DNA of 64,000 nucleotides. Source: Dictyostelium discoideum (Eukaryota). A model generated the notes under the pieces. It did not search any database, was not told the DNA's origin, and was given only the letters and a program-made list of their open reading frames with translations. A program made the position numbers and the translations under genes. Shown here in pieces: positions 3,549 to 64,000 of the stretch (within the stretch, counting starts at the first letter, position 1; each line of letters starts with the position of its first letter). The DNA lies in the NCBI GenBank assembly GCA_000004695.1, contig CM000155.2, positions 1,536,001 to 1,600,000 of the forward strand, given 5' to 3'.

Positions 3549-3960
3549 ATTATTATTATTATAAAAAATAATTGTGGAAAAAAAAAAGAAAATAGGAAAA
3601 AAATTTGAAAAAAAAAAAAAAAAAAAAATCTTGGAGAATGAGGATAGTTTTTTTGGTTGAAAAAAAAAAAAAAAAAAAAATTTTTAATTCCAAATAAAAA
3701 AAAAAAAAAATAAAAAAATAATAATATTAATGTTCCCAATTTTTTTATTTATTTTTATTGTCATTTTGATTTTTTGAATTGTCCTCTTGAGGGTTAATTT
3801 TTTTTTTTTTTTGTAACAATTGAAACCACCATTAAAATTGTGGAGTTTATATAATAAGTTAATTGATTTATTTGGTTTTTGTGTTGAAATAATGATAATT
3901 TCCTTTTATTACGCTTTGAGCAAGCAAAAAAAAAAAATAAAAAGAAAAAAAAAAAAAAAA

Positions 3961-4058
3961 AAAAAAACAGATGACTACATTCATTTTATATATTTTTTAT
4001 ATCATTTTGTGTATTTTTGAGTGCTCTATTTATCTATACTAAATTCATATTAAAAATT
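3961..4058 (+). repeat. Copy 1 of a dispersed repeat element of about 95 bp (acagatgactacattcattttatatattttttatatcattttgtgtatttttgagtgctctatttatctatactaaattcatattaaaaattaa)
   Basis: About 96 percent identical to the direct copy at 4281..4378. Both copies are preceded by a poly(A) run of at least 20 nt. A third copy (inverted) and a fourth (direct, more diverged) lie at 26756..26835 and 26897..26995. Confidence 0.7.
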
Positions 4059-4150
4059 AAACAAAATAAATATACCCCATTGTCCATGCCAAAATTACTA
4101 CATTAATTTCAGCAGCCTCAGTAATTTTAGCATGCATAGAGCACCTATTT

Positions 4151-4238
4151 TAATATGGTAAAACTAGCGGGCTGAATTTAATATGATAAAATTGGTATCA
4201 AAAATTAATATGGTAAAACTAGCGGGCTGAAATTAATA
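4151..4238 (+). repeat. Two tandem copies of a 33-bp motif (taatatggtaaaactagcgggctgaa[a]ttaata) inside the core between the flanking repeats
   Basis: The copies lie at about 4151..4183 and 4205..4238, separated by 21 bp. The segment is unusually GC-rich (agcgggctg) for this genome. Confidence 0.6.
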
Positions 4239-4280
4239 CACCCAATCAAATCCAATTTCAAAAAAAAAAAAAAAAAAAAA

Positions 4281-4378
4281 ACAGAATGACTACATTCATT
4301 TTATATATTTTTTATATCATTTTGTGTTTTTGAGTGCTCTATTTATCTAAACTAAATTCATATTAAAAATTAATAATT
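4281..4378 (+). repeat. Copy 2 of the same dispersed repeat element (direct repeat of 3961..4058)
   Basis: Together with copy 1 it flanks a GC-richer core of about 200 bp (4063..4260). The pair sits in the divergent intergenic region between the 171..3548 gene and the Sec23/24-like gene. Confidence 0.7.
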
Positions 4379-4531
4379 TAAAAAAAAAAAAAAAAAAAAT
4401 CAAAAATAAAATTAAAATGAAAAAAAAATTTTTTGGGTGTCCCAATTGAATGTTTTTATTAATTTTATTTTTCATTTTTTTTTTTTTTTATTTTTTTTTT
4501 TTAATTTTCATTTTCTTTTTTTTTTTTTTAA

Positions 4532-4817
4532 ATGATGAATGATTTAAATTTATCAAAACTATCATTAGAAGAATCTAATGATGGTAAAAATTCCCCATCA
4601 CATCCAAGACAACGTATTCAATTCTATCAAGATGAATCAACAACCACATCATCATCACCTTCACAACAAAATCAACAACCACCACAAATGTATGAACAAC
4701 AATCACCAACACCACAAATGTATGAACAACAATCACTAACACCACAAATGTATGAAAAACAACCATTACCAGAAATGTATGAACAAAACCAGGTACCTTC
4801 AACAACACAATACTACC

Positions 4818-8202: not shown

Positions 8203-14722
<6,520 letters not shown>

Positions 14723-25007: not shown

Positions 25008-25082
25008 TTATTCATCACTTGCTTCTTCTTCTTCATATTCTCCTTCTTCTTCATCATCATCCTCCTCTTCATCATCACCATC

Positions 25083-25124
<42 letters not shown>

Positions 25125-26001
25125 TGAAGGTAAAACACCACCATCAGTGAATAAACTTGTATTAATTTGATTTGCTAAAGCAGCGATTTCTTCTTCAGAT
25201 TTCTCATATTCTTTAGATTTAGTATCGATAGCAGATTCATCATCTACAAAGAGATCAGGATTGAAAACAAACATTTCTCTACCACTCATAGAGGTCTTAC
25301 CAGCTTTAATATCAGCAAGACGTTTGTCTTGGGCGTCTTTGGCTGCTTTTTCTTTTTGTAATCTTTTCTCTTCTTTCCATCTTAAGAAAGTTTCTAAAGT
25401 GACAGGAGTTGATTTTGTTAATTTTGCTCTCTCCTCTTCAATCAATTCTTCGATTGGTATTTCTTCAACTTCATCCTCCTCTCTTGACTTCTTCTTTTTT
25501 AATTGGTACCCTTCTGGCAAACAATGTTGATATGCACATTTCTCACCACCATTTGGACACTCCCAGAACCAACCATACTTTTTACTCTCGATTGCGTCTA
25601 AAAAGAATTTACAAATGATTGCTGTTGGTTTGGCTTTGTTTTCAGTTGTTCTCTTCTTTTCAACAACTGATTTCAATTTTGCTTCATCCCAATTCTCCAT
25701 TGTATCCTCATCTTTACGACGATCAGTGTAAATATCAATCTTTTCAGATTTTCTACCTGCTGCTAAATCATGTGCAAACTTACATCTATTACCTTTTGGA
25801 CATGTTACACCTTGTTTAAAATATTCACACACAATACTCTTTGGATCAACACCTAATGGTACTTTACTTTGTACAATTGTATTTACTAAAATTGATTCTG
25901 CTTCTTTCTTTGCTTTCTCTGCTAATTCTTTATCTCTTTTAGCTTTTTCTTTCAATGCTGCTTCCTAAAAATATTAATAAAAAAAAAAAATTTTAATTGG
26001 G

Positions 26002-26045
<44 letters not shown>

Positions 26046-26308
26046 TGATTAAATTGATATTTATATAAAATTATTGATAGATTGATAATATTTGAATTAA
26101 TTTTCATTATTATTGTTGGAATAAAATTTCTGTATTTTTTTACCTTATTTTGAAGACCAGAGTGCTTAACTTGGGCTTCAACTTGAGATACATAAGCTGC
26201 AACTTTTTTACTCTTATTTTTATTTTTTAAACCAAAGGTTTTATCTTCAACCTTTTTCTTTTTTTCTTTTTCAACTGTTTTTTTTGATTGGGCTTGTTTT
26301 GGTGGCAT
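25008..26308 (-). CDS. ZC3H15/DFRP1 (Tma46-like CCCH zinc-finger partner of DRG GTPases), 2 exons (26308..26144, 25964..25008)
   Basis: Exon 1 encodes MPPKQAQSKKTVEKEKKKKVEDKTFGLKNKNKSKK...SGLQNK and ends at a GTAAAA donor. Exon 2 starts at TTTTAG|GAAGCAGCA and holds two CCCH fingers (SIVCEYFKQGVTCPKGNRCKFAHD and YGWFWECPNGGEKCAYQHCLP), then a DFRP domain and an acidic poly-Asp tail. Confidence 0.8.
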
Positions 26309-26755
26309 TTTATCTTAAAAAACCTTTATTGATAATTTTACAATAATATATCTATTTATATATATATAAAATAAAATTTGTTAGAAAAAAAAAAAATGAA
26401 AAAAAAAAAAATGGGCGGAAAAAAAAAATAAAAAAAAAAAAAAAATAAAAAAATGAAAAACAAAAAATAAAAAAAAAATAAAAAAATTCACGCAAAATTA
26501 ATGAAGTTCTATTTGTTTTTTGATTTAAGAGTATTTTTTTTTTTTTTTTTATTTAACAGATTTTAAAAAAGGAATATATTAAGAAAAATGAATTGATTAA
26601 AATATTTGAGAAAATTTTTATAATTTAAAATATCTCCCCCTTTCTCACCACAATATTTGTTTATAAAAAAAAAATTGAAAAAAAAAAAAAATTTTATTTT
26701 TAATTTTTCTAATTTTTTTTTTTTTAATAATGATTTAATTTAATTTATTTTTAAA

Positions 26756-26835
26756 TATGGATTAAGTATAGATAAATAGAGAACTCAAAAATACACAAAA
26801 TGATATAAAAAATGAATGTATCCATTCTGTTTTTT
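26756..26835 (-). repeat. Copy 3 of the dispersed repeat, in inverted orientation, with a 12-bp internal deletion
   Basis: The reverse complement reads aaacagaatggatacattcatttt-ttatatcattttgtgtatttttgagttctctatttatctatacttaatccatat, about 85 percent identical to copy 2. Confidence 0.6.
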
Positions 26836-26852
26836 TGAATTTTTAAAATTTT

Positions 26853-26889
<37 letters not shown>

Positions 26890-26896
26890 AAAAACA

Positions 26897-26995
26897 AAAT
26901 CCATTGATTTTTTTTATATTTTGTATGATTTGTATTGTATATTTTTGGGTGCTCTATTTTTATATACTATATTCAAATTAAAAATTAATAAAATT
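26897..26995 (+). repeat. Copy 4 of the dispersed repeat (diverged, direct orientation), arranged head-to-head with copy 3 across a poly(A) spacer of about 45 nt
   Basis: The segment ...atttttgggtgctctatttttatatactatattcaaattaaaaattaa aligns to the 3' two-thirds of copy 1 at about 80 percent identity. Confidence 0.5.
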
Positions 26996-27102
26996 AAATC
27001 AATTTTTTTAATAAAAAAAAACATCAAAAAATAAAAATAAAAATAAAAATAAAAATAAAAAATCTGGAAAATCTCTTTTTTTTTTTTTGGAAATACTTTT
27101 AT

Positions 27103-28640
27103 TTATAATTTTCTTCTTTTATATCTTGTAATAATTTTTGAAATTACTGCATTCTTTTTCAAAAGAGCAGGATTAACAGATTCATCAACAGATTCTGGCA
27201 ATTGTCTGTGTTTTCCAGCCAACATTAACGCTATAAATACTAATTTTGAATAAGTTGATAAAGTTATACTAATTGATAATCCAACATTTCCAAAAGCTGA
27301 AATCGCTTCGAATAATATCTAAAATATTTTTTTTTAAAATTTTTTTTAATTATTTATTAGTAAAAATTGTTATTGTTGTTATTATTGTTGTTGTTGATTT
27401 ACTACTAATAATAATAATTTAATTTATAATTAATACTTACTTGAAATACAGTGATTACACCACTTTCTAAAAGTTGGCTTTCAAAAATAGCAATAAATAA
27501 AATACAAATATATGGAACGAAAATATCACGAATTAAAACTTCTTTCATAACTTCTCTACTTTGATTACTATATTTATTATTAACAGCAGACCTTCTCAAT
27601 GAAATAATGAATGGATATGATGAAACAAACATTAATCCAACAAATAATAATAAAACTGATTCACTTAATAAATTTAAATCAACTGAATTAAATCCGCATG
27701 TACGGGTACTCTAATAATAATAATAAATAATAATAAAAGTATTAATATATGTAAATAAATAATTAAAAAAAAAAAAAAAAAAAAAAAAAACTTACAATTG
27801 AAGAAAAGTAATAATTTAAAAGTATAGTACCATAATTCATATTTGTGAATGCTTTATCATTTACATCTAATAAAGCCATTAATGCAATTTGTGATACATT
27901 AAAAATACACCAAATTACAAATAATTGAACAGTTTCTTTATATGGGAAAAGATGAGTGAAAATTGAACGTGGATTTTCTAATAAATTTCTATATGGTTCT
28001 GGATCTTTTGTAAACTTTTAAAAATAAAATAAATTAATAATTAATATTGTATTGTATTGTATTGTATTGTAATAATTACTTTTGAAACTACTAATAAAAT
28101 AATTCTTAAAAAAACAGGAAATAAAGTATTTCCTAAGAAAATTAAAATTGATAATGTAATTAATAAAAAATATTTTTCATTAATTTGAATTAAACTATCA
28201 CTAAATAATGCTAAACCAGCATTATTAAATGCAGAGAATGTATGAAATAATGACCACCACCAACCATTTACTCCATTAGCTTTCATTATTGATCTAGCTG
28301 ATTCACTACCTGCTATATATGCACCAATACTTATAAATCCTAATATATAAATTGTTATAATATAACATGGTATAATTACTAATAATTTACCCAATGATCT
28401 ATATTCCATATTATCTTCATAACTATTTAAATTTAATGGTTTTGATAATTGTCTTTGCTGTTGTTGATGTTCTTGTTGCTCTTGTAATTCTTGTAATGAA
28501 TCAATACGATTAATATCAATATTAACTTCTTTTTGTATTGATTGTGAATCATTTGTATTATTATTATTATTTGTACTATTATTTGTACTCTTATTTAAAG
28601 TTGAGTTTGTTGTGGTAGTGGTAGTGGTGGTTGTTGAAGG

Positions 28641-47729: not shown

Positions 47730-48311
47730 TTAATCCAAAATGGAACCTAAATATGGATTATTATAGGTATTATTATTATTTTGATTATTATTATTATTAT
47801 TTTGATTATTATAATTATTGTAGGAATTATTTAATGGTGGTGGTTGGTTATATAAATTTTGTTGATATGGTTGTTGGTATGGTTGTTGATATGGTTGCTG
47901 GTATGGTTGTTGTGGTTGTTGTTGTTGCTGATTATAGGGTGATGGAACTGGAATATTATAAACAGCTTTTTGATTACTATATAATAAAGGTGGTGGAGAC
48001 ATCATTGGTTGTAAAGGTTGTTGAAGTGCAAAATTTGTTGGTTGATAAACAGATTGGGGAATTGGTTGTAAAGGTGGTGGTTGTGATTGATAAACAGATT
48101 GGGGAATTGGTTGTAAAGGAGGTGGCTCTCTACTTTGATAACCATTACTACTATTACCCCATGAATCGATTAATTGTAAATCATGATTAATTGGTTGTGG
48201 TGGTGGTTGTTGTAATTGTTGATTATAGTTTGAATTTGGATTTAAATTACTTTGATGAATTGGTTGTAATGGTGGAGGACCGCTATTATAAAGATTTGAA
48301 TTATATTGAGG

Positions 48312-48394
<83 letters not shown>

Positions 48395-48653
48395 GATATT
48401 GAGTTGAATTTTGATTCGGTATTAATAATTCCATTTTTGATTGATTACTATTATTATTTTCATTAAAAGATTGTGGAACTGGTGAAGATCTACCTTTTCT
48501 TGGATCAAATTGATCATCAAAAATTGGTGAATGAGCACCTGATGGTGATGATGAGCTACCAATACTATTAGTATTATTAAATGAGGATGATGGAGAGGAA
48601 GATATTTTTCTTCCACCACCGGATCCGGTCATCTTTTGAAGGTTAACTGTTTC

Positions 48654-48702
<49 letters not shown>

Positions 48703-51700
48703 GTTGGTGGTATTTGAATTGGTTGAGGTAACATTGGTAATGGACGTCCTGATGATAATTTTCTTGGAGGAACACCATTACTACCACCACTTGCAACAAG
48801 TGTATTATTACTGTTATTAATATTATTATTATTATTATTATTATTACTATTTAATGAATTCTTTCTAGTTGTAGTTACATTTACAAGTTCTTGGTGATGT
48901 TGTTGTTGTTGAATGGTATTATTATTAGTATTACTAATTTGATTGGTTGAAGTTATTTGATATTGAATATTTGTTGTATTTGATCTACCTTTTTGTAAAT
49001 TTGGAGTTGAAGCAGATTGTTTAATTAGTGTAAGTTGTTCAAATTCTTTAGTGATTAAATTTGCACCATCTTTACCATTTTGATTAGTTGTGTTGATAAG
49101 ATTATTGGTACTTTGAGAGGTAGTGATGAATTGTGAAGATTTTTGTTCGTATAATTCTTGACGTAATGTTCTTTCTTTATCTTTATCGATTTTAGTGACT
49201 TCCAATTGAAAGTAAGAACTTACAGGTCTATGATCAGAAGCTAAAATCTCTTGTCTATGATAATAGAGTTGACGTAAATCATGATGAACTTTATTACTCC
49301 AAACGATTCTATCAGTCCAAGCTGGTGATCTTTGTTTTTGAGAAGTATCATATTGAGTGCTATTTAAATCATACTTATAAGTTGGAGGGAAAGCGATTGT
49401 CTCCTCCCTATAACCATTGAAAACTCTACCTGCTTCCATACATTTTCTAAGTTGATCATAGTTGTAAAGTTTTGGAAACTGTTGATCATAGACACATCTT
49501 CTAATTTCTTCATCGGGTAAGTCAATTCTAAAATTGAAATCACCCAACCAAAATGAATAATCTGAATCAGAGACCTTGAATTGACCTTGACGACCAAAGG
49601 CCAATGTTGAATCGATCTCACGGAAATCGGAAATACGATCTTCAACATTGGATTGACCAGCAGCGAAATGAGCCGTGACAAAGGTGAAGGAGGTATCGCT
49701 GAACAATAAACGTACACCAATTCCACCCTTATTACCAGCCAAGCCATTCATACCACATTTGACATTTTGAATTTGTACCTCTCTAAAATAGTGTATTGCA
49801 TCCTCACGTACATAGATTGCCATTAATAAACCTACCAATTGTGATGATTGTAATTTGATATACTTTACATTGGGTGATACTTTTGGAAGTGCACGTTCGA
49901 TTGCATCCTCCCATTGTTTACCAATGGATGAATCTGTTGCTAAAATCTGACCAGCCGTTAACTCCACCACCTCTTGTAGACCTAAAACGTAGAAATCCGG
50001 TGTTGGACAATTGGCACCATCAGGTCTTAACCATTGTACCAAATCAAAGTATGATGAATGTACACCACCAACATTATAAGTACCAACGAAAACATTCCTC
50101 CATTCTTTTTTCGAATATTCTTTAACTCTATCTTGAACTTGTTTTCTAATATTATCATCATGACCACTACCATTACCACCATTACCACCATTACCATTAT
50201 TACTATTATTGACAACCATTGATTTATGTAAACCTAACAATAGATCTAACACATCCTGTCTACCTGGATCTTTGAAATTATTGATATAGAAACGAGTCAT
50301 TGTTTTTTTACCATCTGCCAACATACCCATTATACCATAATCACCCTCACGTGTTAACGTTGATTTCAATGAACCTGAACCTGCATATTGAATCGACAAT
50401 GCATCACCATTATCTGCCCATGTTGTCTTTAATGTTTGTGATACACGTGGATAACTACCAATAGAATCATGACCTCTAAATAATCCTAACTTTCTTAGTT
50501 GACTTTCAAATAATACCCAACTAACTCTTGATTGTACAATATTAGTTCTATCCAAACAATCTTTACAATTTGTACGAATTATACCATTTTGTTTTGAAAT
50601 GATTTGACCATTTGAATTTTGAAAGAAATAACCAACAATTTTTTCACTAACGCCACCAGTGGTACCACCACCACCACTAATTGATTGATTATCAATATAA
50701 TTAATTAAAGAATCTAAAGGATCCATTCTATTACCTTTGGTTTGTTCATTTAAATCGAAATGATTATAGAAAACTTGTGGTGAACGTAATATTCTAATTT
50801 GTTCTTCATAAGCATTTACAAGATCACATTCACCTGATTTCAATTTTGAGAGTAAATTAACGATTACAATATTACCATACTTTTTAGTTTGTTCTTTAAG
50901 ATGCAATTGAAAAGCTGGTGTTGTCGCTTGAGTATTTCTAGCGATTGTAATCTTCTTTTTACTAATTTTACCAATTTTCGATAGATTCGACATTTTAATC
51001 TTTAGATCAGACATTTGTGGTGATGATTGATTCCAAAACACTGGTACAGAACCTCTAATTTGTAAGAATGCCAAAACACCATAACTTTCAATCGATAAGA
51101 TTTGTTCAGATTCACAAAAGTTTGCAACATTACCATCATCATCGATACCACGTGTAACGAATCTAGTACCAGCTCTAAAACGACTTCTTCTCGAAATCAA
51201 TGTGTAAACTACATTCTTTCCTTGAATATGACCGAGATGATCGGATACTACAAAACCTTGTATAATTGGGAAACACCAATCGTATAATCTATATGCTATG
51301 AAATCCTTTTGTAAATATTTATTCCAATAGAATCGCTTATCAACACGTTCCCATACTGGTAAATCCGATTTTGGCTCCAAACATTGACTTTGATAAGTAC
51401 GAGTTATATCAAAACTACTATTTGGTGGTGTCCAATAAAAGTGTCCACTATTCAATAAATTCATAACTTGAACATATGGTCTATCATCTTCTTTTGATTC
51501 TCCATTACCACTACCACCTCCACCACCACCTCCTCCTATTGATATATGCCCTCTACCAGTTTGAAATGATATAAAATCTGTACATCTAATCTTTCTAATA
51601 ACATTTGGTTGTCCTTGAAATTGAAAATTTGCCGCTATATCACTTTCAGTTACAACTACTAAATAACATTCTATTATTTTTTATTATAAAAAAAAAAAAC

Positions 51701-51718
51701 TATTAGAATTTTCTAAAA

Positions 51719-51803
<85 letters not shown>

Positions 51804-52013
51804 TATTTACTTACCATTTACTAATCTAAATATACCTAAAACACAATAAACTGATCTTTCAGATCTTAATGATTGATCAATTTGATCTGGTTGTATTATA
51901 TCGATTTTAGATGGATCTCTTCTATTAATTACTAATGCTTTACTATGTAAAGAATCTCTTTTAATTATAAAACTTTGTGTTGTTATAAAAATTCTAAATG
52001 TATTATCTGCCAT
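47730..52013 (-). CDS. Synaptojanin-like inositol polyphosphate 5-phosphatase with an N-terminal Sac1 domain (candidate Dd5P3), 2 exons (52013..51815, 51670..47730)
   Basis: Exon 1 (MADNTFRIFITTQ...GIFRLVN) ends at a GTAAGT donor in phase 1. Its intron carries an (AAT)n array. Exon 2 holds the Sac catalytic CX5R(T/S) motif RTNCKDCLDRTNIVQ and 5-phosphatase motifs WLGDFNFRIDL and PAWTDRIVW. A Gln/Asn/Pro-rich tail of about 480 residues follows, including a (CAA)n tract. Confidence 0.85.
51719..51802. repeat. (AAT)n microsatellite, about 28 units, in the intron of the synaptojanin-like gene
   Basis: Perfect trinucleotide array lying between the GTAAGT donor at 51814 and the AG acceptor at 51671. 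Confidence 0.9.
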
Positions 52014-52280
52014 TGCACATCTATTTCTCTTTTTAATTTTATATTATATTTGTATATATATATTTATTTTCGCTTTATAAAATTATTATTATTATTATTA
52101 TTATTTGTATTTAGGTATATGGTTTATTTTTTGCAATGAACTTGAGAATAAAGAGTTTATTTTTTTGAAAAAACAAAAAAAAAAAAAATAAAATAAAATG
52201 AAATTTTAAAAAAACAATAAATAAAATAAAAAAGGTATTTTTTACTATTTTACACTGTATGGATAAATAGGGTATAAATA

Positions 52281-52317
<37 letters not shown>

Positions 52318-52345
52318 TAATAAAACAAAAATTAATATCCAAATA

Positions 52346-52358
52346 TTATTATTACTAC

Positions 52359-52418
<60 letters not shown>
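52346..52418. repeat. (TTA)n microsatellite, about 24 units, intergenic
   Basis: Perfect array at the start of a 3-kb AT-rich desert. Confidence 0.9.
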
Positions 52419-53073
52419 GGTTAATTCTACAATTATACTTTTTAAGTATTTATTACTATTTTAAAAAAAAATATACTATTATTATTATTGTCGTTTTTTA
52501 TTTAAATAATAATATTTTTATGTGTAGATATTATTATTTGTTTTTTAACCCAAATATTTTTTTTTTTTTTTTTTTTAAATTTTTTTTTTTTTTTTTTTTA
52601 ATTTTAAATTTTTAAAAAAAAAAAAAAAAAAAATTAAAATATTTCAATTACTTCAACGAAGAAAAATTAATTTTTTTTTTTTTTTTTTTTTTCAAACAAC
52701 ATTTCCGAAACATTTTTCTGGATCGATTTATTAATTTTAAAATTTTGTGGGGGTAATATTGTATATTTTTAGATTTGTTTTATATATAAAAATGAAAAAA
52801 AATATTAAAATAAAAACTATGAATAATATGAGGTAATATTTTTATTATTCATTATAATAATAAAAATATTTTTAATTATTAAACTAAGTTTTTTTTTTTT
52901 TTTTTTTTTTTTCCAAAAATTTTAAAAATAAAATAAAAAAAATTAAAATAAAATATTATAAATTAAATTAAAATACCAAATTAATTGAAATAAATTGAAT
53001 TTTTTTAAAATAAATTAAACCAAAATAAAATAAAATGAAATGATATAAAATGAATAAAATAAAATTATCTTCC

Positions 53074-53106
<33 letters not shown>

Positions 53107-53542
53107 ATAAAATAAAAATAATAATAAAATAAAAAAATAAATAGAATCAATTATTTTAATAAAATAGGGACAAAAATGAATATATATAAATGTAAAAATA
53201 TTTTTTTAAGTTTACAACTTTTGTAACTTTATTTTTTTTTTTTTTTTTTTATATTGAAATTGATAATAACAGGAATAAGGAAATTATTAAAAAATAATTA
53301 TAAAAAGTTTTAAAAATAGAAGGTTCCTATTAATTTTTAGTAGTTAATCTTTTTTTTTTTTTCAAAATTGAATTTGTATTGGTTAATTTTAAAAAATCTA
53401 TTATTATTACAATTTTTTTTTTATTTTTGTTTCTATTTATTATAACAACAAACAAATATATCAATCAAAAATAGAATTTTTTTAATAGTTTGATGAATTT
53501 GTGCACATATAATAGTTGAAATTACTATTAATATTTCTGTGA

Positions 53543-53585
53543 AATGTGTGTTTGTGTGTGTGTGTGTGTGTTTGTGCGTGTGGGT
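53543..53585. repeat. (GT)n dinucleotide microsatellite, imperfect, about 20 units
   Basis: Reads tgtgtgtttgtgtgtgtgtgtgtgtgtttgtgcgtgtgggttg. It is conspicuous in a genome that is otherwise 90 percent A+T locally. Confidence 0.85.
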
Positions 53586-53815
53586 TGTTTTTTTTTTTTT
53601 TTTTTTGCCATGCCAATTAAATTATTTTTAGGATTTACTGCTATATGAAATGTGCAAAATATAATAAATTTAAAAAATGATAAAATATTTGTCAACCCAC
53701 ACATAAATCATACATTACATATATAATGTATGTATGTAAATATTTACATTTAATTTTTTTTTTTTTTTTTTTTTTTCAATTATAATAATTATTTTTATTT
53801 TTATTTTTAATTATT

Positions 53816-53846
<31 letters not shown>

Positions 53847-54143
53847 GGGAATATAATTAAAGGTTTTTTTTTTTTTTTGTGTATATTTTTATTTCCTTTT
53901 CAATCATTAATCAAACTTATTTAAATAATTAAGATAATAAAAAGGATTAACAAATCTTTGTTTCATTGAGCAAACACTGTATGTATAATTAAATTAACAA
54001 ATTTTAAAAATAAAAATAATAAATAAAATAAAAATTTAAAAAAAAAAAAAAAGAGTGACACATCATAAAAATCTACCCTAAAAATAATAGTAATAAAATT
54101 TTTTTTAATTATTATAATTAATAAAATTAAAATTAAAAATATT

Positions 54144-54177
<34 letters not shown>

Positions 54178-55187
54178 TTATTTTGGTTTATTATAAATTT
54201 AAAAAAAACTATTTAATTTGTATAAAAATAACCCAAAACATAAAATAATTAAAATAAGTAATAGCATAAGTCATATAAAAGTAATAAAAAAAAAATATAT
54301 AACTATTAGTTTTTTATTTTTTCCCCATTAAAAAAAAAAAAGTGTTTAAAAAAAAAATTTATACATTTTAACTATTTTAACTATTTTTTATTTAATTACA
54401 TATAACCCAATAACATATAAAAACAATTATTTTTTTTTTAATTTATTTCTTTATTTATTTATTTTTTTTTTTTTTTTTTTTTTTCAATAACCACACAAAA
54501 AAAAAAAAAAAAAATCTACTTTGCCTTTTAAAATGATACAATTTATATCAAACTGAGCAAATACCAATCCCTAATTTAGTATTATTGTTATGAATATCAT
54601 CATAACCTCCACCACAACCACTCACTACTACTATTACTACTACCACCACACCCCAACTAAATATTCCAAAAAATAATAATTATTATATCAACGGCAATCA
54701 AAATTAATTTTAAATAATCAAAAAAGATTTAAACAATTAAAATATTTTTTTAAAAAAAAAAAATCATAAATGTGGTTTTTTTTATTTAACTAAATGTGTT
54801 TGTATTTAATTGTACAGATAAAACAATTATTTTATTGGTATTATATTATATTTTTTAACTATTCATTTTTTTTTTTTTTTGTTATTTTTATTTTTATGTT
54901 TATAATTGTTTTTTATTTTTATTTTATCATTATCTATTTATTTATTTTTTTTAAAAAAAATTTTAATTATTATTTTCTCTTGATATATCTTTGTAAATAA
55001 TTAATATTTTATTTTATTTATATTTTATTTATATTTTATTTTTATTTATTTTATTTTTTTAAAAAAAATTTCTTAAAAAAAAAAATATATTATTAATTAA
55101 AAAAAAAAAAAAAAAGAATATATTATTTCTATACAATCAAATATATATATAGATTTTTTAATAAAATATAAAAAAAAAAGAAATACA

Positions 55188-55934
55188 ATGGATTCACCAA
55201 TAATGAATAGAGTAATTGGAAATACTAGTAATACTACATTACAACTTCAAGATAGAGTTGATGAATTAGAAAAAAGAAATAACTTTTTAGAAAAGGAATT
55301 AGAACATTACAAGAATGAATTAGCATCAACCAGAAAGATTTTAACAGAGAGGGATAATTTATTGTTACAACTTCAATGGGATGAAGATGATAAAGAATTG
55401 GATGCCGATGCACAAAAGAAAAAGAGATCAAAAGAACGTGTTGCCAATGAAGAACGTCAACAAATCACTCGTTTAAGATCACAAATGAAAATTATGGAAA
55501 CTGCATTAGAAGAAAGGGATACAAACATTCATAAACTTCATAAAGAATTGAGTGATTCAAAAATTCAATACCAAGTGACCGTTGATTCTCTTGCTCAAGG
55601 TAGAGATGCCCCAGTTAGAAGTAAAACAAGTTGGGGTTTTAAATCATCACCATCCTCTTCACCAATGGTTTATAAACCTTCTTATTCCGCAAGTCCAATT
55701 CAAAGTGAAAAACAATATTCAGTTGCTCCTTCTCCTGCCAATTCTCCTGCAATGAGTTCTCCAAATTTCGCTTCCTCTTCTTCAACTTCTTCTGGTTCAC
55801 CTTCAATGATGGAATTTGATTATAATAATCATCCAAAGAAATTAAACAAAAAAGGTAGTATCTTTAATTTCAGAAAATCAAAGAAATCACCAATTATTCA
55901 AGATACAAATTGGGCAACTCAATCTGCACATTAA
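55188..55934 (+). CDS. Hypothetical coiled-coil protein (248 aa)
   Basis: A single ORF with a good start context (acaATGg). The N-terminal 130 aa has heptad-like charged periodicity (LEKRNNFLEKELEHYKNELASTRK...). The C-terminal half is Ser/Pro-rich. The surrounding sequence is very AT-rich intergenic DNA. Confidence 0.5.
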   Translation: MDSPIMNRVIGNTSNTTLQLQDRVDELEKRNNFLEKELEHYKNELASTRKILTERDNLLLQLQWDEDDKELDADAQKKKRSKERVANEERQQITRLRSQMKIMETALEERDTNIHKLHKELSDSKIQYQVTVDSLAQGRDAPVRSKTSWGFKSSPSSSPMVYKPSYSASPIQSEKQYSVAPSPANSPAMSSPNFASSSSTSSGSPSMMEFDYNNHPKKLNKKGSIFNFRKSKKSPIIQDTNWATQSAH

Positions 55935-56144
55935 AAAAAAAAAAAAAAAAAAAACTAAAAAAAAAAACTAAAAAAAGAAACCCAATACAAACATGTAATT
56001 AAACAATTACACTATTTGTAAAAAAAAAACAATATTAATAATAAAAATAACTGTATAAACAATCTCTTTTTTTTTCTTTTTCTTTTTATATTTTTTAAAT
56101 TTAATTACTTTTTTTATTTATATTTATTGATTCGTATAAAATAT

Positions 56145-56892
56145 TTAAGCAACTAAGATACAAGCACCACCGACAGCTTTGATTTTCTTTTCAGCGACTT
56201 TAGAGAAATAACGAGCTTTGACGATGATTGGTTGAGTTGGGAGGATACCGTGACCTAAAACTTTGAAGAAACCTTTTTGGGTGACATCAACAACTGGAGC
56301 AGTACCGTCATTCTTGGCAGCTAATGATTTTCTGACGGATTCTGGGACTAAAGTCCAGATCTTTTCTAATGAGACGGTTGGACAATGGTATTGGTTTCTT
56401 AATAAATGGAAATGTCTCATACCTAATTTACCGAAATAACCTGGATGGTATTTGTCAAAGTTAATTCTGTGATGAGTGAGACCACCAGCATTACCACGAC
56501 CACCTGGATGCTTTCTGTGTTTACCAACACGACCGTAACCGGCACAAACGTCACCTCTTGATTTTCTATGCTTACTGAATCTGGTTGGCTAAATTTTAAT
56601 TATTATTATTAATTTTACATATTAGTCACTATTCTTTGTTTTGGTGTATTTTGTTTTTCATATATTTTCAAATGTAATATGAATCATAGTTTTGGTTCAA
56701 ATGTATAGTATTATTGATGTTTGATTTTGTTGTATTGGGTTTGATGATTGGTTGATAAAGGATTAACTATTTATTCTTTGACTAATTATCATTAATCTTT
56801 ATCAATCTTTTATCAATGAATGAATTCTAAATACATGACACCTAAACTAAAAAAAATATCATATACACATAGATACATGATATATATAATCC
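56145..56892 (-). CDS. rpl27a: 60S ribosomal protein L27a (uL15), 2 exons: an ATG-only exon 1 (56892..56890) and exon 2 (56586..56145)
   Basis: Exon 2 encodes [72 protein letters not shown]...VGGACILVA, matching RPL27A residue by residue from position 2. The only in-phase Met is an isolated ATG immediately followed by a GTGAGT donor at 56889. The acceptor is TTTAG|CCAACC at 56587. Confidence 0.85.
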
Positions 56893-57461
56893 TACTCACC
56901 ATTTTAATATGTGATACTGACTAACAAACGAAAAAAAAAAAAAAAGTTGAGAAAATCAATTCACCCACAGCAGTCGCGGGAATTTTTTTTTTTTTTTTTT
57001 TTTTTCAATTTTTTTTTTTTTTTTTTTTGGATAACGTAAAAATATTTTATGAGACAAGTTTGTTGAGTTTTATTTTTATTTATTTTTTTTTTTTTATTTT
57101 AAAAATCTTTAAATTATGGTGATATTCTATTTAAAACAGTTAAATTTTTTTTTTTTTTTTATTTCCTTTAATATCATTATTAAAAAAAAAATAAGAAAAA
57201 AATAAAAAAAAAGATCATGTTATTTTATATTTATTTTTATTTTATTTTTTATTTTTTATTTTTTATGTTTTAAATTTATTGTTTGATATTATTTAATTTT
57301 AAATTTCCATGTGGGATTAAAAAAAAAAAAAAAAAAAAAAAAATAGACTCAATTAGTTTGGAAATAATAATTATTTCAATATTAAAAATTTTAGAATAAA
57401 TTTGTATATAGAATAAAAAGTAATAATAAGTTTATTTCTATTTTAATTTGTAGACTAACAC

Positions 57462-57511
<50 letters not shown>

Positions 57512-57746
57512 AAAATTAAGATATCGAAAATTTGGGGTTTCCCACACGATAATTTTTTTTTTTAATTTTAATTTTAATTTTTTAATATTTCGATTAGAAA
57601 TTTCTAAAAGAAACAATGTTATTCAAAAAGAATCTTTTTTTTTTTTTTTTATCTTTAAATTTAATTTTTAAAATTGTTTTTTTTTTTTTTTTTTTTTTTT
57701 TTTTCCCAAAGATCAAAATTAATAATAATTCCTTATTATTTAAATA

Positions 57747-58763
57747 ATGGAATTACAGATTTTATCAAATTACTATGATTTTGAAACTCTATCTGGTCGA
57801 AAATTGAATATTTCACAAGAGAGTGGAGAAACTGTTGGAAATGTAAAAAAAAGAATTGCTTCAATTTTTGGAAATGATGGAGAGATTGGAAGTGATGGTA
57901 GTTTTTATTTATTACATTATGGTAGAGAATTAAATGATGATGAAATTGTTAATCAATCTTTAATTGATAGTAGTGTGGATGGCGATGATAAATTAAGAGG
58001 AAATGGTAGTAAAAAGGATAATAATAATAATGGTAAACCAATTCAAATTCGTCGTAATAGATATAGTTGTTTTGCTGAACATATGATTAATGAGCATTTA
58101 GTAAAACCATGGTCAAAATGGATTGCTAGAATTTCTTGTATAATTTTTTCAGTGTTACTAATTGCATCATTGGCACAAATTTCATTTTACCTTCCACATG
58201 CTAAAAATGTACCAGTAACATTTCAAACATTGGGTGTATTTGTAATGTCATCTTTATTAGGATGGAAAATGGGATGCTCCAGTATTATCCTTTACTTATT
58301 ATGTGGTCTTGCAGGTGCTCCATTCTTTACAAATCAGAACCATGGTGTAACTTATATGTATGGAAGTACTAGTGGTTACTTGTATGGTTTCATCGTTGCC
58401 TCTTTTATTGTTGGATTTTTCGCCGAAATGGGTAGTGATAGAGCTTATATCTTTAATTGGAAATCCACTTTGTTTTCAATGATATTTGCAAATATTGCCA
58501 TTTACATTATTGGTATTCCTGTTTTAGCTATTAAAATTGGTTGGATAAAATCATTCAAATTAGGTTTACTTCCATTTTTAGTTGGTGATGCACTTAAAAT
58601 AATTATTGCAACAATTATAATTCCATCAATTTGGAAATTCATTGCATTTCTCTCAAATAAGCGTATAATTATTAAATCTCCAACAATTAAAGATATTTTA
58701 TCTTCTTCACAATTAAAAAATGATAAAACTTCAATTGAACTAAATAATATAAACTCACAATAA
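57747..58763 (+). CDS. BioY-family (biotin ECF-transporter S-component-like) membrane protein with an N-terminal ubiquitin-like segment, single exon, 338 aa
   Basis: The C-terminal 190 aa carries BioY signatures: VPVTFQTLGVFVMSSLLGWKMG, GLAGAPFF, GSTSGYLYGFIVASFIVG, YIIGIPVL and LPFLVGDALK. Six hydrophobic helices are evident. The N-terminal 75 aa (LQILSNYYDFETLSGRKLNISQESGETVGNVKKRIASIFG...) fits a beta-grasp, ubiquitin-like pattern. Confidence 0.75.
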   Translation: MELQILSNYYDFETLSGRKLNISQESGETVGNVKKRIASIFGNDGEIGSDGSFYLLHYGRELNDDEIVNQSLIDSSVDGDDKLRGNGSKKDNNNNGKPIQIRRNRYSCFAEHMINEHLVKPWSKWIARISCIIFSVLLIASLAQISFYLPHAKNVPVTFQTLGVFVMSSLLGWKMGCSSIILYLLCGLAGAPFFTNQNHGVTYMYGSTSGYLYGFIVASFIVGFFAEMGSDRAYIFNWKSTLFSMIFANIAIYIIGIPVLAIKIGWIKSFKLGLLPFLVGDALKIIIATIIIPSIWKFIAFLSNKRIIIKSPTIKDILSSSQLKNDKTSIELNNINSQ

Positions 58764-58893
58764 CTATTTTAATTTACCAATAAATTTTTTTTTTTTTATT
58801 TTTTTTTCTCTCCCAAACAAGTTTTTTTTTTTTTTTATTCCTTTATAAATTAATTCATTACATTAAAAATATATGGATAGTATATTTTAAATA

Positions 58894-58925
<32 letters not shown>

Positions 58926-59139
58926 TGGAATGGCACCAGCTCAGTTTTTTTTTGACAATTTCTTTTTTATTTTTTTTTTTTTTATTTACATTTTTTTTTT
59001 TCTTGATGATTCCTTTATATATTAATTCATTACATTAATACTATCAGGATTCTATTTTTTAAATAATAAAAAAAAAAATGGAAAAAAAAAAAAAATAAAA
59101 TGATTAATATACTTTTTTTTTTTTTTTTTTTTTTAACTT

Positions 59140-60418
59140 TCAACATACCATATTTCTATAACAAATTGGAGATTGAACAGTTGTAGTTGTTTCAGTTACA
59201 GTTTTTGTAGTTGTAGTTGTAGTTGTCATCAACATATGTTTACATTCACTACAAACATGTTGACAATTAACATTTGGACATTTAAAATCACCTTTTGAAT
59301 AGGTGTTTTGTTGATTTCCTTTTTTTTCGGAAATGTTCATATTTTTTATATCTTCATTTAGTTTGTTTTCAATTGTATTATTCATCATTAATTGATAAGT
59401 TGATTGTTCAAATTGTTCAATTTGTTCTTCTGATAAATCAATCCATTCATCCATCCAACAAAAGAGAGATCTATGTGCTTTTAGAAATACTTCTCTTAAA
59501 CCATTGGTTTGAACTAAATTTTCAACTCTATTTTGGAATCCCCAATAATTGAAATTTACAGTTACTAATTTATAAACCACCATTGCCGGATTTACCTCTT
59601 TTCTCCAATTTGGCGATGTTAATGGACCTCTACCAGTTAATTTTGATTTAAACATTCTTGGATCTTCATCTGTTTTGACATCTTTTCCTTCAACTTCATC
59701 TCTTGCAATATCAACATGGTCTACTATTCTTTTCTTTAATATATCTTTACTTAATCCAAATACATTCTCTTCTTCATCTCTACCATCTTTATGAATAGAT
59801 TCAATACATAAATAAAACTTTTCACCAAAAAATGGGCACTTTTTTTTTTTTAATTTAAAAGAAATAAATAAATAAATAAAAATAAATAAATAAATAAAAA
59901 TAAATAAATAAATAAATAAATAGATAAATAAATAATTATTTAGTAAAACTAATTTTTTTTTTTTTTTTTTTTTAATATGTCAAAATAATTACACTATAAA
60001 TTGTTTTAGTATTTGGGTAACTATTCCAAGATTTTTCTTCAATTTTTAAAGCACTTTTTGGTAAAATTGCAGAAGCATATCTTGGTAAAGATTTTTTCAA
60101 AAGAAATACTTTGTGAGTAAATGTACCTTTTACACCATTTTTATCTGTAAATGAACTTTTTTCCAAAAGTTGAACATTATCACCTGCATTTGAAGATTCA
60201 TGGGTTTTTCTGGCTGTCATATATTTTTGACCCAACCTATATTCTTCCTTGGTAAATGGTAATGTAATTCTACTATATTTTATTTAATGGTTTTTAAAAA
60301 ATTAATATTAATTACTATACACATATATTTAATTTTTTTATTTTTTTTTTTATTATTTTTTTTTTTAACTCTAAAAATTTAAAAAAAATAAAAAAACTTA
60401 CTATTCCTTAATTAACAT
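59140..60418 (-). CDS. Phosphatidylinositol transfer protein (class I PITP), 3 exons (60418..60402, 60272..59993, 59838..59140)
   Basis: Spliced product: MLIKEY | RITLPFTKEEYRLGQKYMTARKTHESS...GTFTHKVFLLKKSLPRYASAILPKSALKIEEKSWNSYPNTKTIYS | CPFFGEKFYLCIESIH...EDPRMFKSKLTGRGPLTSPNWRKEVNP...YKLVTVNFNYWGFQNRVENL.... This tracks PITP-alpha along its whole length. Donors are GTAAGT in phase 2 and GTAATT in phase 0. Confidence 0.85.
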
Positions 60419-61448
60419 TTTTTTAAAATATCAATGGAAGTATTATTATTATAATTATATTAATATTTTTTAATTATTATTTCAAAAAATAATTTAATTT
60501 AAAAATAAAATTAATTAATTTAAATTTGTTATTTTTATATTTTTTTTAATTTTTTTTTTTTTAATTTTTTTTTTTTTAATTTTTAGAGTTGGTTTTTGAT
60601 TATTTTTTTTGTATTAAATTTAATATAATGGTGTTTTGAATAAATGGGAAAAAAAAATAGATTTAAAAAATCTTTAAAATGACAACAAAATGTTTATTTG
60701 GATAATAAAGGTTCTATAAAAAAACAAAGACAAAAATCAGATTAATTTAAAAATAAAAAAAAAATGAAATCATTATAATTTTTTTATTTTTTTTAATTTC
60801 CATTTTTTACAAAAAAGGATAACTTTACATTTATAATCATTTGTTGAAAAAAAAAGAATTCTTTTTTTAGAAATCGTCTTTTAAATTAATATTATTCAAC
60901 CACATTTATTCCCGTTTTGGAATTTTTTTTTTTATTTTTTTTTTTTATTTTTTTTTTATTTTTTTTTTATTTTTATTATTTTTTTTTTATTTTTTTTTTT
61001 TTTTTATATTTTTAAAGAAAAAACTTTTGGATAACCAATAAATTATTTTCATATTTTATTTTATTTTTTTTTAATTCAAATCTAACAAAATTATTTTATT
61101 TTTCATTTTTTTTTTTTTTTTTTTTTTTTAACAATGATTTCATTATATTTATTTTAATATTAATTTAGTATGGATAGTTGAGCATTAAAAATTTCACAAA
61201 ACGACATAAAATAAAAAAAAATAAAAAAAAAATGAAAAAAAACCTTTTATTTTTTGAATTTTTTTTTTTTTGAATTTTTTTTTTTATACAAAAATTAAGT
61301 TTGTTGTTGTAGAAAATGAAGAATGGAATATGGTAATTTAGTTTTTCCTTCTCATTCCTTAATCCAAAGCACAAATTATTATATTTTCTTATAAAGTTGA
61401 GATTTTAATTGGGCATAATAAAAAAAAAAAAGGAATAAATAAATAAAT

Positions 61449-61479
<31 letters not shown>

Positions 61480-61520
61480 AATTAATTAAACCTACAAAAA
61501 AAACCTATTAAATTCTTTAT

Positions 61521-63085
61521 TTAGTTGGTTTTTTCAGTAGAGGATAATTCAACTCCGGTTGTCTGTTCTTTTTCTATTTTATCATCTTTTTCATCACCAT
61601 TTTCTTCTTGATTTTGTTCTTGGTTTCTTAAATTATTTTGTTGTTGTAGTTGTGTGTTTGGTGGTGGGATGGGCATGGAATTCAAAATTGTATTAGATGA
61701 TGTAGAATTTGTAGTGGTTGTAGTTGTGGTTGTAGTATTGGTTGGTGGTGAGTGAAGTTGATCGGATGAAAGTTGTTTTTTTGGAGTGAAATTATTTGCA
61801 TCTATAACACTTGGTGATTTAATAGTTGTTAAATCAACAGTAGGGAATAAAGTAATATTTTTAGTATCCCATTTTTCACCAGAATAATTGAAAATAATTG
61901 ACCAAACATAAGGAGTGATAAATTCAAAACTTGTTGACTCCTCTTCATATTTAAATCTAAGAATACCTTCTTGATCGGGTGGTGGAACTGGTAAAGATTT
62001 TGATTTACTTTCTATAAATGACATTATAGTTTCTGCTGTTGTCTCTTGTTGTGATAATCCATTAATTGCATGTTTTAATTCACTTGAAAAATATGAAAGT
62101 ATCTAAATAATTTTTATCATTAATTTTTATAATTATTGTTAATATTAATATTTATTTTATATTTATATATGTTTTTAATTATTTTTAATTATTTTTAATG
62201 ATTTATTATTATTATTATTAATTTATAAATTACTTACATTTAAAATATTATTAGATAAAGAAGAAAGATTTTCTTCATTTAAAAATACAGGGAAATACTC
62301 TTGTTGATGTAAAAGTGAATAAATTAAATGTGGATTTGAGTATGCTCTATAGGTGAGTGTATTATTTATAATTTGGAGTACAATATACAAAAATTCAGAG
62401 TGAGTGGTTAATTCTTCAGATTGTAATTCTTTAAGATTAAGGTCGGGTGAATTTAAAAATGAACTATTATTATGTGATTCATTGTGATGTTTGTTAATGC
62501 TGCTATTATGATTTTCTAAATTTTTAATTTGCTGAAGTTGGTTCACATCCAATGATAAATCATCTGATATCGATACTGATGACATTGATTGTGTTATATT
62601 ATTTGTATTATCTTTTACATTGTTGTTACTATTGTTTGTATTAATTTTTGATGGTGAATCAACTTGATTTAACATTTTTTTTCTTTTTTATTTTAATTAA
62701 AAAAAAAAAAAAAATATTATTAATTAGTAAATTTCAAAGTGGTGATTAGGTTGGTGGAAAAAAAAAAAAAAAAAAAAAAAAAAAAGAAAAATTCTTACAA
62801 TTTTATATATCTTTTACTTAATATTTCTAATAGTTTAACTAAACGATTTGCAACATATGGGTGAATATGTGAGATATTTGAAGATAAATTTGCTAAAATC
62901 GCTAAACAATTTGTATGTAAATGAGCATCACGTAATTTCGATAAATTTAAAATGATTGATTTTATTAATACAACCATTAAAATACCTCCTAATGAAACAT
63001 CAATTAAAAGTCTTTCTTTATACCATAATATTTGATGAACAATCTAAAATAAAAAAAAAAGATTTATTGTTAATAGAAAAGAGAG

Positions 63086-63116
<31 letters not shown>

Positions 63117-64000
63117 TATACTTACTAATGAATGAACATTTTCATTAAATAAAGAGTCTTGAGATAAAATTAAAATAATAATCAAAATCATATTAACTTG
63201 TTGTGGTTTTTCTTCAAAAGAATTATATAAAATCTGAATCATTGGTAATAACTAAAAAATAAGAATTAGATAAATGTTTTTTTTTTTTTTTTTTTCCAAT
63301 TTTTTAAAAAACCCAATACATACTAAATTATCTAAATCAGTTCTTGATTGAACATACCTAAAAAAAAAACTATTTTCTTGTAATAAATAATAAAGTAATA
63401 AAATATTTTTATCAGACGATGGTGATTTTATAATACTCTCATATAATTGTTGCATTGAAATCCTAATTTGGTGATTATTTGGATTTGAATTTAATAAATC
63501 TATTGAAACTAAATAAATAAAAAAAAAAAAAAATAAAAAAAAATAAAAATTTGTTAAAAAGGTGTAAATTAAAAAAAATTATAGTGAGAATTGTATTAAA
63601 TTATATTTACAATCTTTATCTTGAATATTTGATAAAATTTTTCTAAAAGGATTACCCTTTGGGTAATTATATTGAACCAATACTAATAAATTAAAAGTTG
63701 ATAACTCTGTCATTGAATTACCTGTTGCATTATTTTGAGGGAAAAAATATTTATACGCATTTAATGGTAATAATAATAAATAAGCTAAAAATAATATATT
63801 ATTATGGGTGAGGAGGGAGGGAGTCAATAATACTATTAATAATATGTAAAAAAAAAGAAAGTTATTAATACTTACAAGCAGCACTACCAATTGAATCTAA
63901 TAAACTATTTGAAGTTGAGGGTGGTGGTTTATTTTCAATGATATTATTAAAAAGATTGAAAATGAAACTATAAACTATTGGAGAGTTTGGATTATTATAA
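61521..64000 (-). CDS. Dymeclin (DYM homologue), at least 6 exons; the 5' end lies beyond the window
   Basis: The last exon (62102..61521) encodes ILSYFSSELKHAINGL...FKYEEESTSFEFITPYVWSIIFN. Upstream exons (about 62683..62238, 62977..62799, and ORF pieces 63018..63242, 63252..63455 and 63579..63890) encode RDAHLHTNCLAILANLS, IQILYNSFEEKPQQVNMILIIILILSQDSLFN and YVQSRTDLDNL. Each lines up with human dymeclin segments. Donors are GTAAGT and GTAAGA. Confidence 0.75.

Follow-up and report, generated by a model that had tools for sequence, protein, structure and literature searches.

We analysed a 64,000-nucleotide stretch of the Dictyostelium discoideum genome (assembly GCA_000004695.1, contig CM000155.2, positions 1,536,001 to 1,600,000 of the forward strand; hereafter the window), in which two copies of a short repeat stand head to head in the 794-bp spacer that separates two minus-strand genes, ZC3H15 on the left and a TrkH-family transporter gene (Trk) on the right. 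This palindrome probably arose when two members of one short interspersed repeat family were acquired separately; both are slowly decaying, and the family is so far known only from the D. discoideum species complex. An earlier note on this DNA, made from its letters alone, had placed the pair correctly between the two genes, whose labels are right by their homologs, and had described the copies as inverted members of one family, as our alignment and the core matches at 26769 (minus strand) and 26943 (plus strand) confirm. It had further taken their geometry as that of a foldback element and as support for a mobile or recombinogenic origin; these points fared differently in the comparison with related genomes described below. 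Throughout, copies 1 and 2 make up locus A, copies 3 and 4 (the head-to-head pair) locus B, copy 5 locus C, and a copy outside the window, in an HSP70 neighbourhood, locus D. The comparison of orthologs across genomes covers loci B, C and D.

Results

The copies belong to a genuine repeat family

The 64-kb window has a base composition of 22% GC and many A/T tracts. In it, the 22-nt core sequence TTTTGAGTGCTCTATTTATCTA has exactly four matches with up to three mismatches (4015 and 4328 on the plus strand, besides the two at locus B), against 0.01 expected from shuffled sequence. In a permissive blastn search with copy 1, copy 2 scored 136 bits, copy 3 98, copy 4 91 and copy 5 65, whereas the AT-rich background gave many matches of 35–48 bits and none above 48. 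Leave-one-out profile hidden Markov models (HMMs) recovered the held-out copies at E-values of 1e-4 to 3e-7, with noise at 13 or higher in 346 kb; copy 5, the most decayed copy, was still detected by the model built without it (E 1.3e-4). Thus, the family is real, and what its members share is an element, not base composition. Scans of metagenomes (JGI) and of GTDB with a degenerate 24-mer returned three matches, which we judged to be chance because they lie in DNA of 34–44% GC and match only ~25–32 nt of the profile; two of the three fall in the same sequence stretch, one of them a Mucilaginibacter genome.

The four copies listed in the earlier note all stand, including copies 1 and 2 in direct orientation near 3961–4378 (cores 3968–4072 and 4282–4382, both plus strand), but their total does not, as a fifth copy lies at 61135–61248 on the minus strand. 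The locus D copy was found via a paralog of a window gene and then via an identical HSP70 protein, so that the family comprises six independent copies at four loci, five of them in the window. With copy bounds set by pairwise alignment (Table 1), the shared element is longer than the 95 bp first given to it: the alignable complex core measures 99–107 bp, and the unit with its A-rich leader and tail ~130–170 bp. The deletion in copy 3, put at 12 bp in the note, is one of 9 bp relative to copies 1 and 2.

Table 1 Repeat copies and neighbouring features, in positions of the window
Feature	Positions	Strand	Description
Copy 1	3945–4072 (core 3968–4072)	+	A23 run and core; nearest to the family consensus
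Copy 2	4254–4399	+	leader AATTTC-A22; core 4282–4382; A20 tail 4380–4399
ZC3H15/DFRP1-type CCCH gene	25008–26308	-	ATG at 26308; exon 1 26308–26144, intron 26143–25965, exon 2 25964–25008
Promoter-proximal conserved block	26599–26668	-	aligned in all five species; distal limit of the conserved ZC3H15 upstream region
Copy 3, A-rich 3′ tail	26692–26730	-	TTATTA-A13-TTAGAAAAATTAAAAATAAAA; T-tracts on either side of the indel relative to L001
Copy 3, core	26731–26829	-	CAGAATGGATACATTC...AAATTAAATCA; 9-bp deletion relative to copies 1 and 2
Copy 3, 5′ leader	26830–26848	-	TTTTAAAAATTC-A7
A31 tract	26857–26887	+	inside 26830–26894; 5′ A-tract of copy 4 and loop of the predicted hairpin
Copy 4, core	26895–27001	+	more diverged arm: 77% identity to copy 1, 72% to copy 3
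Copy 4, 3′ flank	27002–27021	+	ATTTTTTTAAT-A9
Stop codon of the TrkH-family transporter gene	27103–27105	-	faces the repeat pair; AATAAA directly after
Copy 5	61106–61285	-	leader 61249–61285; core 61135–61248; A24 tail 61106–61129

Anatomy of the repeat unit

An alignment of all copies with their flanks divides the unit into three parts. A leader of the form A(n)-TTC-A(6-22) comes first, the complex core of ~105 nt next, and last, after AATAAA, an A-rich tail. The A(n)-TTC-A(n) leader motif is common to copies 2, 3 and 5, the locus D copy and the ortholog of copy 4 in the D. cf. discoideum genome ACTFIZ (L001). The core extends from (C/T)AGAATG to AAATCA, and its 3′ 44 nt are the best conserved. 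Past the core, an A-run of at least 8 nt begins within ~30 nt in five of the six independent copies, and one of at least 9 nt in four of six; the base rate of an A-run of at least 9 nt within 45 nt is ~24% of positions in comparable AT-rich DNA of the window. These 3′ tails vary in length, from A9 in copy 4 through A13 in copy 3 and A20 in copy 2 to A24 in copy 5, the last reading A15TA7TA7 in the genome ACTFIW; the tail at locus D has an A8 run and, after it, ~45 nt of A-rich sequence. The 3′ end of copy 1 is replaced by a unique, GC-richer spacer.

The unit has no coding capacity. Single copies fold no better than shuffled sequences (z -0.6 to +2.0), have no terminal inverted repeats beyond the complementarity of A-runs and T-runs, and hold no subrepeats, Tandem Repeats Finder reporting only homopolymer and low-complexity rows. 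Rfam gave nothing relevant, either in a gathering-threshold scan of the whole window or in permissive scans of 3800–4550 and 26310–27110. ARAGORN and Rfam were blank for a tRNA-like signal at every copy, and scans for tRNA genes drew a blank both in the 64-kb window and in 13 related loci; targeting of the TRE or DGLT type is therefore ruled out. Runs of T4 to T6 occur early in the unit on both strands.

Copies 3 and 4 probably have different histories

Via ZC3H15 homologs, we took the orthologous Trk-ZC3H15 regions from four genomes: ACTFIY (D. cf. discoideum, L002; ZC3H15 protein identity to the window 96%), ACTFIZ (D. cf. discoideum, L001; 95%), D. citrinum (L004; 93%) and D. firmibasis (L003; 91%). 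The spacer holds both copies in the same arrangement in the window and in ACTFIY, copy 4 only in ACTFIZ, and neither copy in D. citrinum and D. firmibasis, while all five can be aligned over the proximal promoter blocks of ZC3H15 despite these repeat differences. The ortholog of copy 3 lies at 9485–9573 of L002, with none in L001, L003 or L004; those of copy 4 lie at 9475–9585 of L001 and 9332–9434 of L002, both on the minus strand, with none in L003 or L004. Each copy shares diagnostic sites with its own orthologs (GAGTTCTC and AATCC for copy 3, TTTTTATATAC for copy 4), and copy 3 lacks the substitutions that copy 4 has in common with its orthologs in ACTFIZ and ACTFIY. By pairwise alignment, copy 3 is 80–81% identical to copies 1 and 2 versus 72% to copy 4. 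Judged by these identities and shared states, copy 3 did not arise by duplication of copy 4.

Parsimony would place the gain of copy 4 before the split from ACTFIZ and that of copy 3 after it, the direction, gain as opposed to loss, being likewise what we infer. Copy 4 would have come first, into the non-conserved distal part of the Trk-ZC3H15 spacer; copy 3 would have followed in opposite orientation, before the split from ACTFIY, from a source resembling copies 1 and 2. The two arms would then not have been acquired as a unit, for which reason the foldback geometry is no evidence for a mobile origin. A mobile or copy-type origin is nevertheless plausible for the family as a whole, because its members are dispersed over four intergenic loci that are unlinked or far apart, vary in presence and absence by lineage and diverge in a star-like manner. 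As for the recombinogenic origin that the note also proposed, no sign of it was seen in the pair, which has been kept intact in two lineages, the window and ACTFIY.

The head-to-head pair and its predicted fold

The 5′ ends of copies 3 and 4 face each other across 65 nt (26830–26894). As the earlier note had proposed, the two form a long imperfect palindrome able to fold: the 276-nt pair region is predicted to make one long imperfect hairpin of -45.8 kcal/mol as DNA (z -6.7) and -53.1 kcal/mol as minus-strand RNA (z -6.2), and none of 200 shuffled sequences folded as well in either case. The poly(A) tract described at its centre is indeed present between the copies as A31, yet it is not a symmetric centre, because it corresponds in position to the homologous A22–23 run ahead of copies 1 and 2 and so belongs to the 5′ side of copy 4.

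In the orthologous pair of ACTFIY, the inner half of the stem is not maintained and only the invariant core is still paired. Comparing the window with ACTFIY for covariation speaks neither for nor against the stem, since the paired core is invariant and the sole apparent compensatory changes fall in A/T tracts. Apart from that orthologous pair, ~390 kb of sampled sequence contained no other inverted pair. Arms of 72% identity with a 65-nt spacer are a weak substrate for cruciform- or hairpin-driven breakage. The head-to-head geometry and hairpin potential look incidental, an ordinary by-product of repeat accumulation for which no special mechanism is needed, because the copies appear to have been acquired separately and the source of copy 3 would have been like copies 1 and 2, not like copy 4. 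Both copies are distal to the conserved block at 26599–26668; for this locus, the smaller practical message is that the pair lies outside the conserved ZC3H15 promoter and is stably inherited.

Copies at the other loci

Copy 5 lies ~720 bp upstream of the ATG of a PITP gene. The same sequence, without any difference, stands in ACTFIT (L017), a D. discoideum assembly (GCA_054883475.1) whose contig JBTAPE010000034.1 matches window positions 47747–64000 in one alignment at 99.4% identity. Its ortholog in ACTFIW, a diverged D. discoideum lineage (L019, 16226–16415, minus strand), is much better preserved, with a full leader and 5′ half.

Locus D is filled in ACTFIR and ACTFIW, both labelled D. discoideum (L010 and L011), and in ACTFIY (L009). 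It is empty in ACTFIZ (L013), where the left junction GATGAATAATT is conserved and an A-tract stands where the element tail abuts on the right; ACTFIT (L012) lacks the copy and has a rearranged spacer. The filled sites differ among themselves: in ACTFIY (L009 15901–15978, compared with L010 15930–16050) the 5′ half is replaced by an (ATT)n microsatellite, and in ACTFIR and ACTFIW the core contains an expanded (TA)n run. On the strength of these two changes, copies at this locus decay fast by slippage.

Outside the species complex, D. citrinum and D. firmibasis had no copy in five loci totalling 108 kb (87 kb non-redundant), and D. purpureum had no family member in the 21 kb sampled.

Divergence within the family is star-like. 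Copy 1 differs from each other copy at 5–9 of 44 core sites and the others differ mutually at 8–16 of 44, the centre of the star being the sequence of copies 1 and 2. Orthologous cores differ at 2–10 of the 44 sites, which is too variable to judge selection on the 3′ core; the neutral yardstick, identity at four-fold degenerate sites, is 95.6% and probably inflated by AT and codon bias.

At locus A, copies 1 and 2 are 92–96% identical and carry near-equal A-runs (A23 and A22), and for these reasons their sequences suggest a recent DNA-level duplication or gene conversion, not two independent insertions. Their homology ends at ...AAAAATTAA. The spacer between them (4073–4259) is unique and GC-richer and contains an internal 34-bp direct repeat (4150–4183 and 4205–4238, 97% identical) that begins TTAATATGGTAAAACTAGCGGGCTGAA. 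Neither a repeat of this spacer in any sampled locus nor an Rfam match was found; 14 nt of it match a primer for potato mitochondrial nad3, probably by chance. An open reading frame of 1125 amino acids adjoining the locus had no match by exact look-up. Homolog searches aimed at this locus, crowded by low-complexity words, yielded only a paralog and a Heterostelium protein, and a search of representatives gave only D. purpureum for the gene.

Discussion

Alternative explanations

The observations above have to be weighed against five other accounts of the pair or the repeat. Five of the six independent copies stand 150–2000 bp upstream of a gene whose orientation they share, and the 3′ half of the core is the best conserved, as would suit a shared cis-regulatory module, a promoter or enhancer kept by selection upstream of several genes and not mobile. 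We regard this as improbable: D. citrinum and D. firmibasis lack the repeat in their orthologous promoters but conserve the proximal blocks there, copy 4 points to the 3′ end of Trk, the variation of orthologous cores carries no consistent signal of constraint, and the 5′ halves decay by slippage.

Local events could also be envisaged, in which template switching or hairpin-primed repair duplicated copy 4 in inverted orientation to give copy 3, so that recombination would have produced the pair. The copies are adjacent, copy 3 is later than copy 4 on the species tree, and both two-copy loci hold their copies within 320 bp. Such an origin is nonetheless very unlikely, because copy 3 lacks those copy 4 substitutions, common to the ACTFIZ and ACTFIY orthologs, that predate it and carries instead the states of copies 1 and 2, and because the flanks of the arms are asymmetric, with A31 on one side only.

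We give just as little credence to the idea that the pair is a hairpin-RNA gene, a miRNA-like or small interfering RNA (siRNA) precursor feeding the Dictyostelium RNA interference (RNAi) machinery. The predicted RNA hairpin of -53.1 kcal/mol has arms of ~100 nt, and Dictyostelium miRNA loci are mostly intergenic, some deriving from the repeat thug-S (PMC6161686, PMC4894637). The likeness extends to the young miRNA and siRNA loci that arise from repeat-derived inverted duplications in plants and other eukaryotes: there too a long hairpin that can be transcribed is formed by two inverted copies of one dispersed repeat, and the host has Dicer-like and RNA-dependent RNA polymerase machinery. The criteria for D. 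discoideum miRNAs are a hairpin below -0.2 kcal/mol per nt, defined 5p and 3p small-RNA reads and dependence on DrnB (PMC6161686). At -0.19 kcal/mol per nt over 276 nt, the pair just misses the first of these; none of the 18 mature miRNAs in Table S1 of that paper matches it, and the 8-mers of the core are missing from its supplement save for one unrelated T-rich promoter-motif string (PMC6161686). Inner stem pairing is not maintained between the window and ACTFIY, ACTFIZ lacks one arm, and Rfam is blank.

The foldback geometry named in the earlier note would require the pair to be one foldback or MITE-like unit (MITE, miniature inverted-repeat transposable element), two inverted arms and a loop inserted as a single piece. 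That the region folds as one long hairpin and that the same pair is present in ACTFIY would both fit. Such an origin is hardly credible when ACTFIZ has only one arm at the same site, the arms are less alike (72%) than copy 3 and the copies at another locus (80–81%), the remaining members are solitary (loci C and D) or direct (locus A), and no further inverted pair occurs in ~390 kb. The arms of foldback transposons are the closest relatives of each other and typically consist of tandem subrepeats; here they contain no subrepeats, and no terminal inverted repeats were found.

Finally, there is virtually no chance that the similarity is a product of AT-rich low-complexity sequence, as the window's 22% GC, A/T tracts and many 35–48-bit blastn matches might suggest, with four core matches where 0.01 are expected, family scores of 65–136 bits above a background of 48 or less, and a jump of HMM E-values from 1e-4 to 13.

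Relation to known elements

Two separate acquisitions of a dispersed repeat, the reading that we favour, raise the question of what kind of element this is. It behaves most like a non-autonomous retroposon. With non-autonomous non-LTR retroposons (LTR, long terminal repeat), such as short interspersed nuclear elements (SINEs), trypanosomatid SIDER/TSIDER and D. discoideum TRE5-A.2, it shares a short, non-coding, intergenic and lineage-specific character, star-like divergence from a master-like sequence, a variable A-rich 3′ tail after AATAAA, one filled site beside a pre-existing A-tract and the lack of terminal inverted repeats. Unlike SINEs, it has no tRNA-, 7SL- or 5S-like head and no A or B box, and its internal T-runs would stop RNA polymerase III (Pol III). 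It also differs from non-autonomous retroposons in showing no clear target-site duplications of variable length or 5′-truncated copies and no identified partner among long interspersed nuclear elements, in a comparison that left TRE consensus sequences outside.

Of the described D. discoideum elements, the non-LTR elements TRE5 and TRE3 and also DGLT-A differ in their location, as the present repeat does not lie beside tRNA genes. TRE5/TRE3 and DGLT-A insert within ~50–100 bp of a tRNA gene (PMC5633606, PMC3159450).

Foldback elements and MITEs, including D. discoideum thug, are likewise small and non-coding, and the pair at locus B does form a long imperfect hairpin; but each copy lacks terminal inverted repeats, the arms have no subrepeats and most copies are unpaired, thug sequences not being among those compared directly. 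In foldback elements, moreover, arms would not be acquired at different times or fail to be mutual closest relatives, as appears to be the case here. The repeat is neither a MITE nor a foldback element.

Reading copy 1, spacer and copy 2 as a solo LTR or terminal-repeat retrotransposon in miniature (TRIM) is weakly possible. Copies 1 and 2 are direct repeats of ~105 bp, 92–96% identical, around a unique segment of 190 bp; the core can be read as TGA...TCA, and a purine run (A22) precedes copy 2. By contrast, no TGG-type primer-binding site follows copy 1, no target-site duplication of 4–6 bp is visible, solitary copies also have an upstream A-run, not expected of a solo LTR, and the A-rich leader and tail are part of the unit.

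How the repeat may have spread

The family could have spread by copy-and-paste via a polyadenylated RNA, as a non-autonomous retroposon. RNA-mediated spread is suggested by the A-tail after AATAAA, the filled site beside an A-tract and the star-like divergence; this route is the most likely one we can name, and we put it forward only tentatively, an unclassified DNA-level mechanism being what would otherwise be at work. Our preferred reading of the repeat is that of an unclassified short interspersed repeat that may have been retroposed.

Several points weigh against this picture. No target-site duplication is unambiguous, every junction lying in A/T-tract DNA: the candidates, T-tracts at locus B and ATGAATAAT / ATGAATGTAAT at locus D, are all in A/T tracts and indistinguishable from chance. 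The copy 3 indel in ACTFIZ is bounded by T-tracts and equally explicable as a slippage deletion, and the surroundings of copy 4 align poorly with D. citrinum and D. firmibasis, which leaves the insertion boundaries undefined. Instead of being tails left by reverse transcription, the A-runs may belong to the unit that is copied. Among the copies there is no clearly 5′-truncated insertion (copy 1 lacks the TTC leader, with no truncation series), and the unit has no internal Pol III promoter, the T-runs inside it being such as would terminate Pol III transcription. The copy number rests on ~90 kb of D. discoideum sequence and is biased, the window having been flagged because it bears the repeat. 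Lastly, an existing catalogue may already list the family, or its members may be pieces of a known transposon. The literature on Dictyostelium MITEs and SINEs that could be searched, with Repbase, Dfam and dictyBase left outside, yielded no account of a family of this kind, and full-text searches with 11–15-mers of the core returned only unrelated primers.

As to abundance, the 64-kb window contains three loci and ~22–32 kb of independently chosen DNA one; extrapolation, crude and biased as it is, gives very roughly 10^2 to 10^3 copies in the genome. Bolder, and unlikely as we see it, is the possibility of an undescribed non-autonomous retroposon, not targeted to tRNA genes, that would number from hundreds to a few thousand copies within the D. 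discoideum complex, would have been active across recent speciations, and whose occasional inverted pairs would yield hairpin RNA and draw the family into RNAi control.

To our knowledge, every known non-LTR element in the compact D. discoideum genome is thought to survive only via tRNA-gene targeting. A repeat in ordinary intergenic spacers of this very gene-dense genome, not linked to tRNA genes and gained or lost between sibling species, would add a different class to the retrotransposon inventory. Within the D. discoideum species complex, the presence or absence of its copies would moreover serve as a marker. The value of the finding is modest, that of a possibly uncatalogued repeat family in a model organism. 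The D. discoideum retrotransposons discussed in the sources cited here avoid damage by inserting beside tRNA genes (TRE5, TRE3, DGLT-A) or by clustering at centromeres (DIRS-1) (PMC5633606, PMC3159450, PMC2665215).

Flanking genes and further observations

The top matches of the ZC3H15-type protein are dictyostelid CCCH/DFRP_C proteins, and the repeat pair lies 423–693 bp upstream of its ATG. On the other side, copy 4 is probably beyond the Trk poly(A) site, because AATAAA stands immediately after the Trk stop codon.

Upstream of ZC3H15, three blocks (26333–26362, 26493–26521 and 26599–26668) have been conserved in D. discoideum, D. citrinum and D. firmibasis alike. They contain a TATA-like ATATAAATAGATAT, CAAATAGAACTTCATT..GCGTGAA and GGGGGAGATATTTTAAATTATAAAAATTTTCTC, and are likely to be functional promoter elements. 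In D. purpureum (L025, GL870958.1), a protein-kinase gene is next to ZC3H15 on its upstream side, and TrkH lies ~5 kb downstream on the opposite strand; the adjacency of Trk and ZC3H15 is therefore specific to the D. discoideum group.

Around locus D, the HSP70-SpoU neighbourhood (~15200–21900 in L010, L011 and L012) differs by 4–11% among these assemblies, although all of them bear the label D. discoideum, identity being 94–96% between L010 and L011 and 89–90% between L010 and L012. This region is hypervariable, and the downstream genes form a cross-matching paralog family whose gene models differ per strain. Near locus C, a (TTTA)n microsatellite just past the dymeclin-like gene (window 61440–61500, minus strand) is greatly expanded in ACTFIW (L019 16577–16670).

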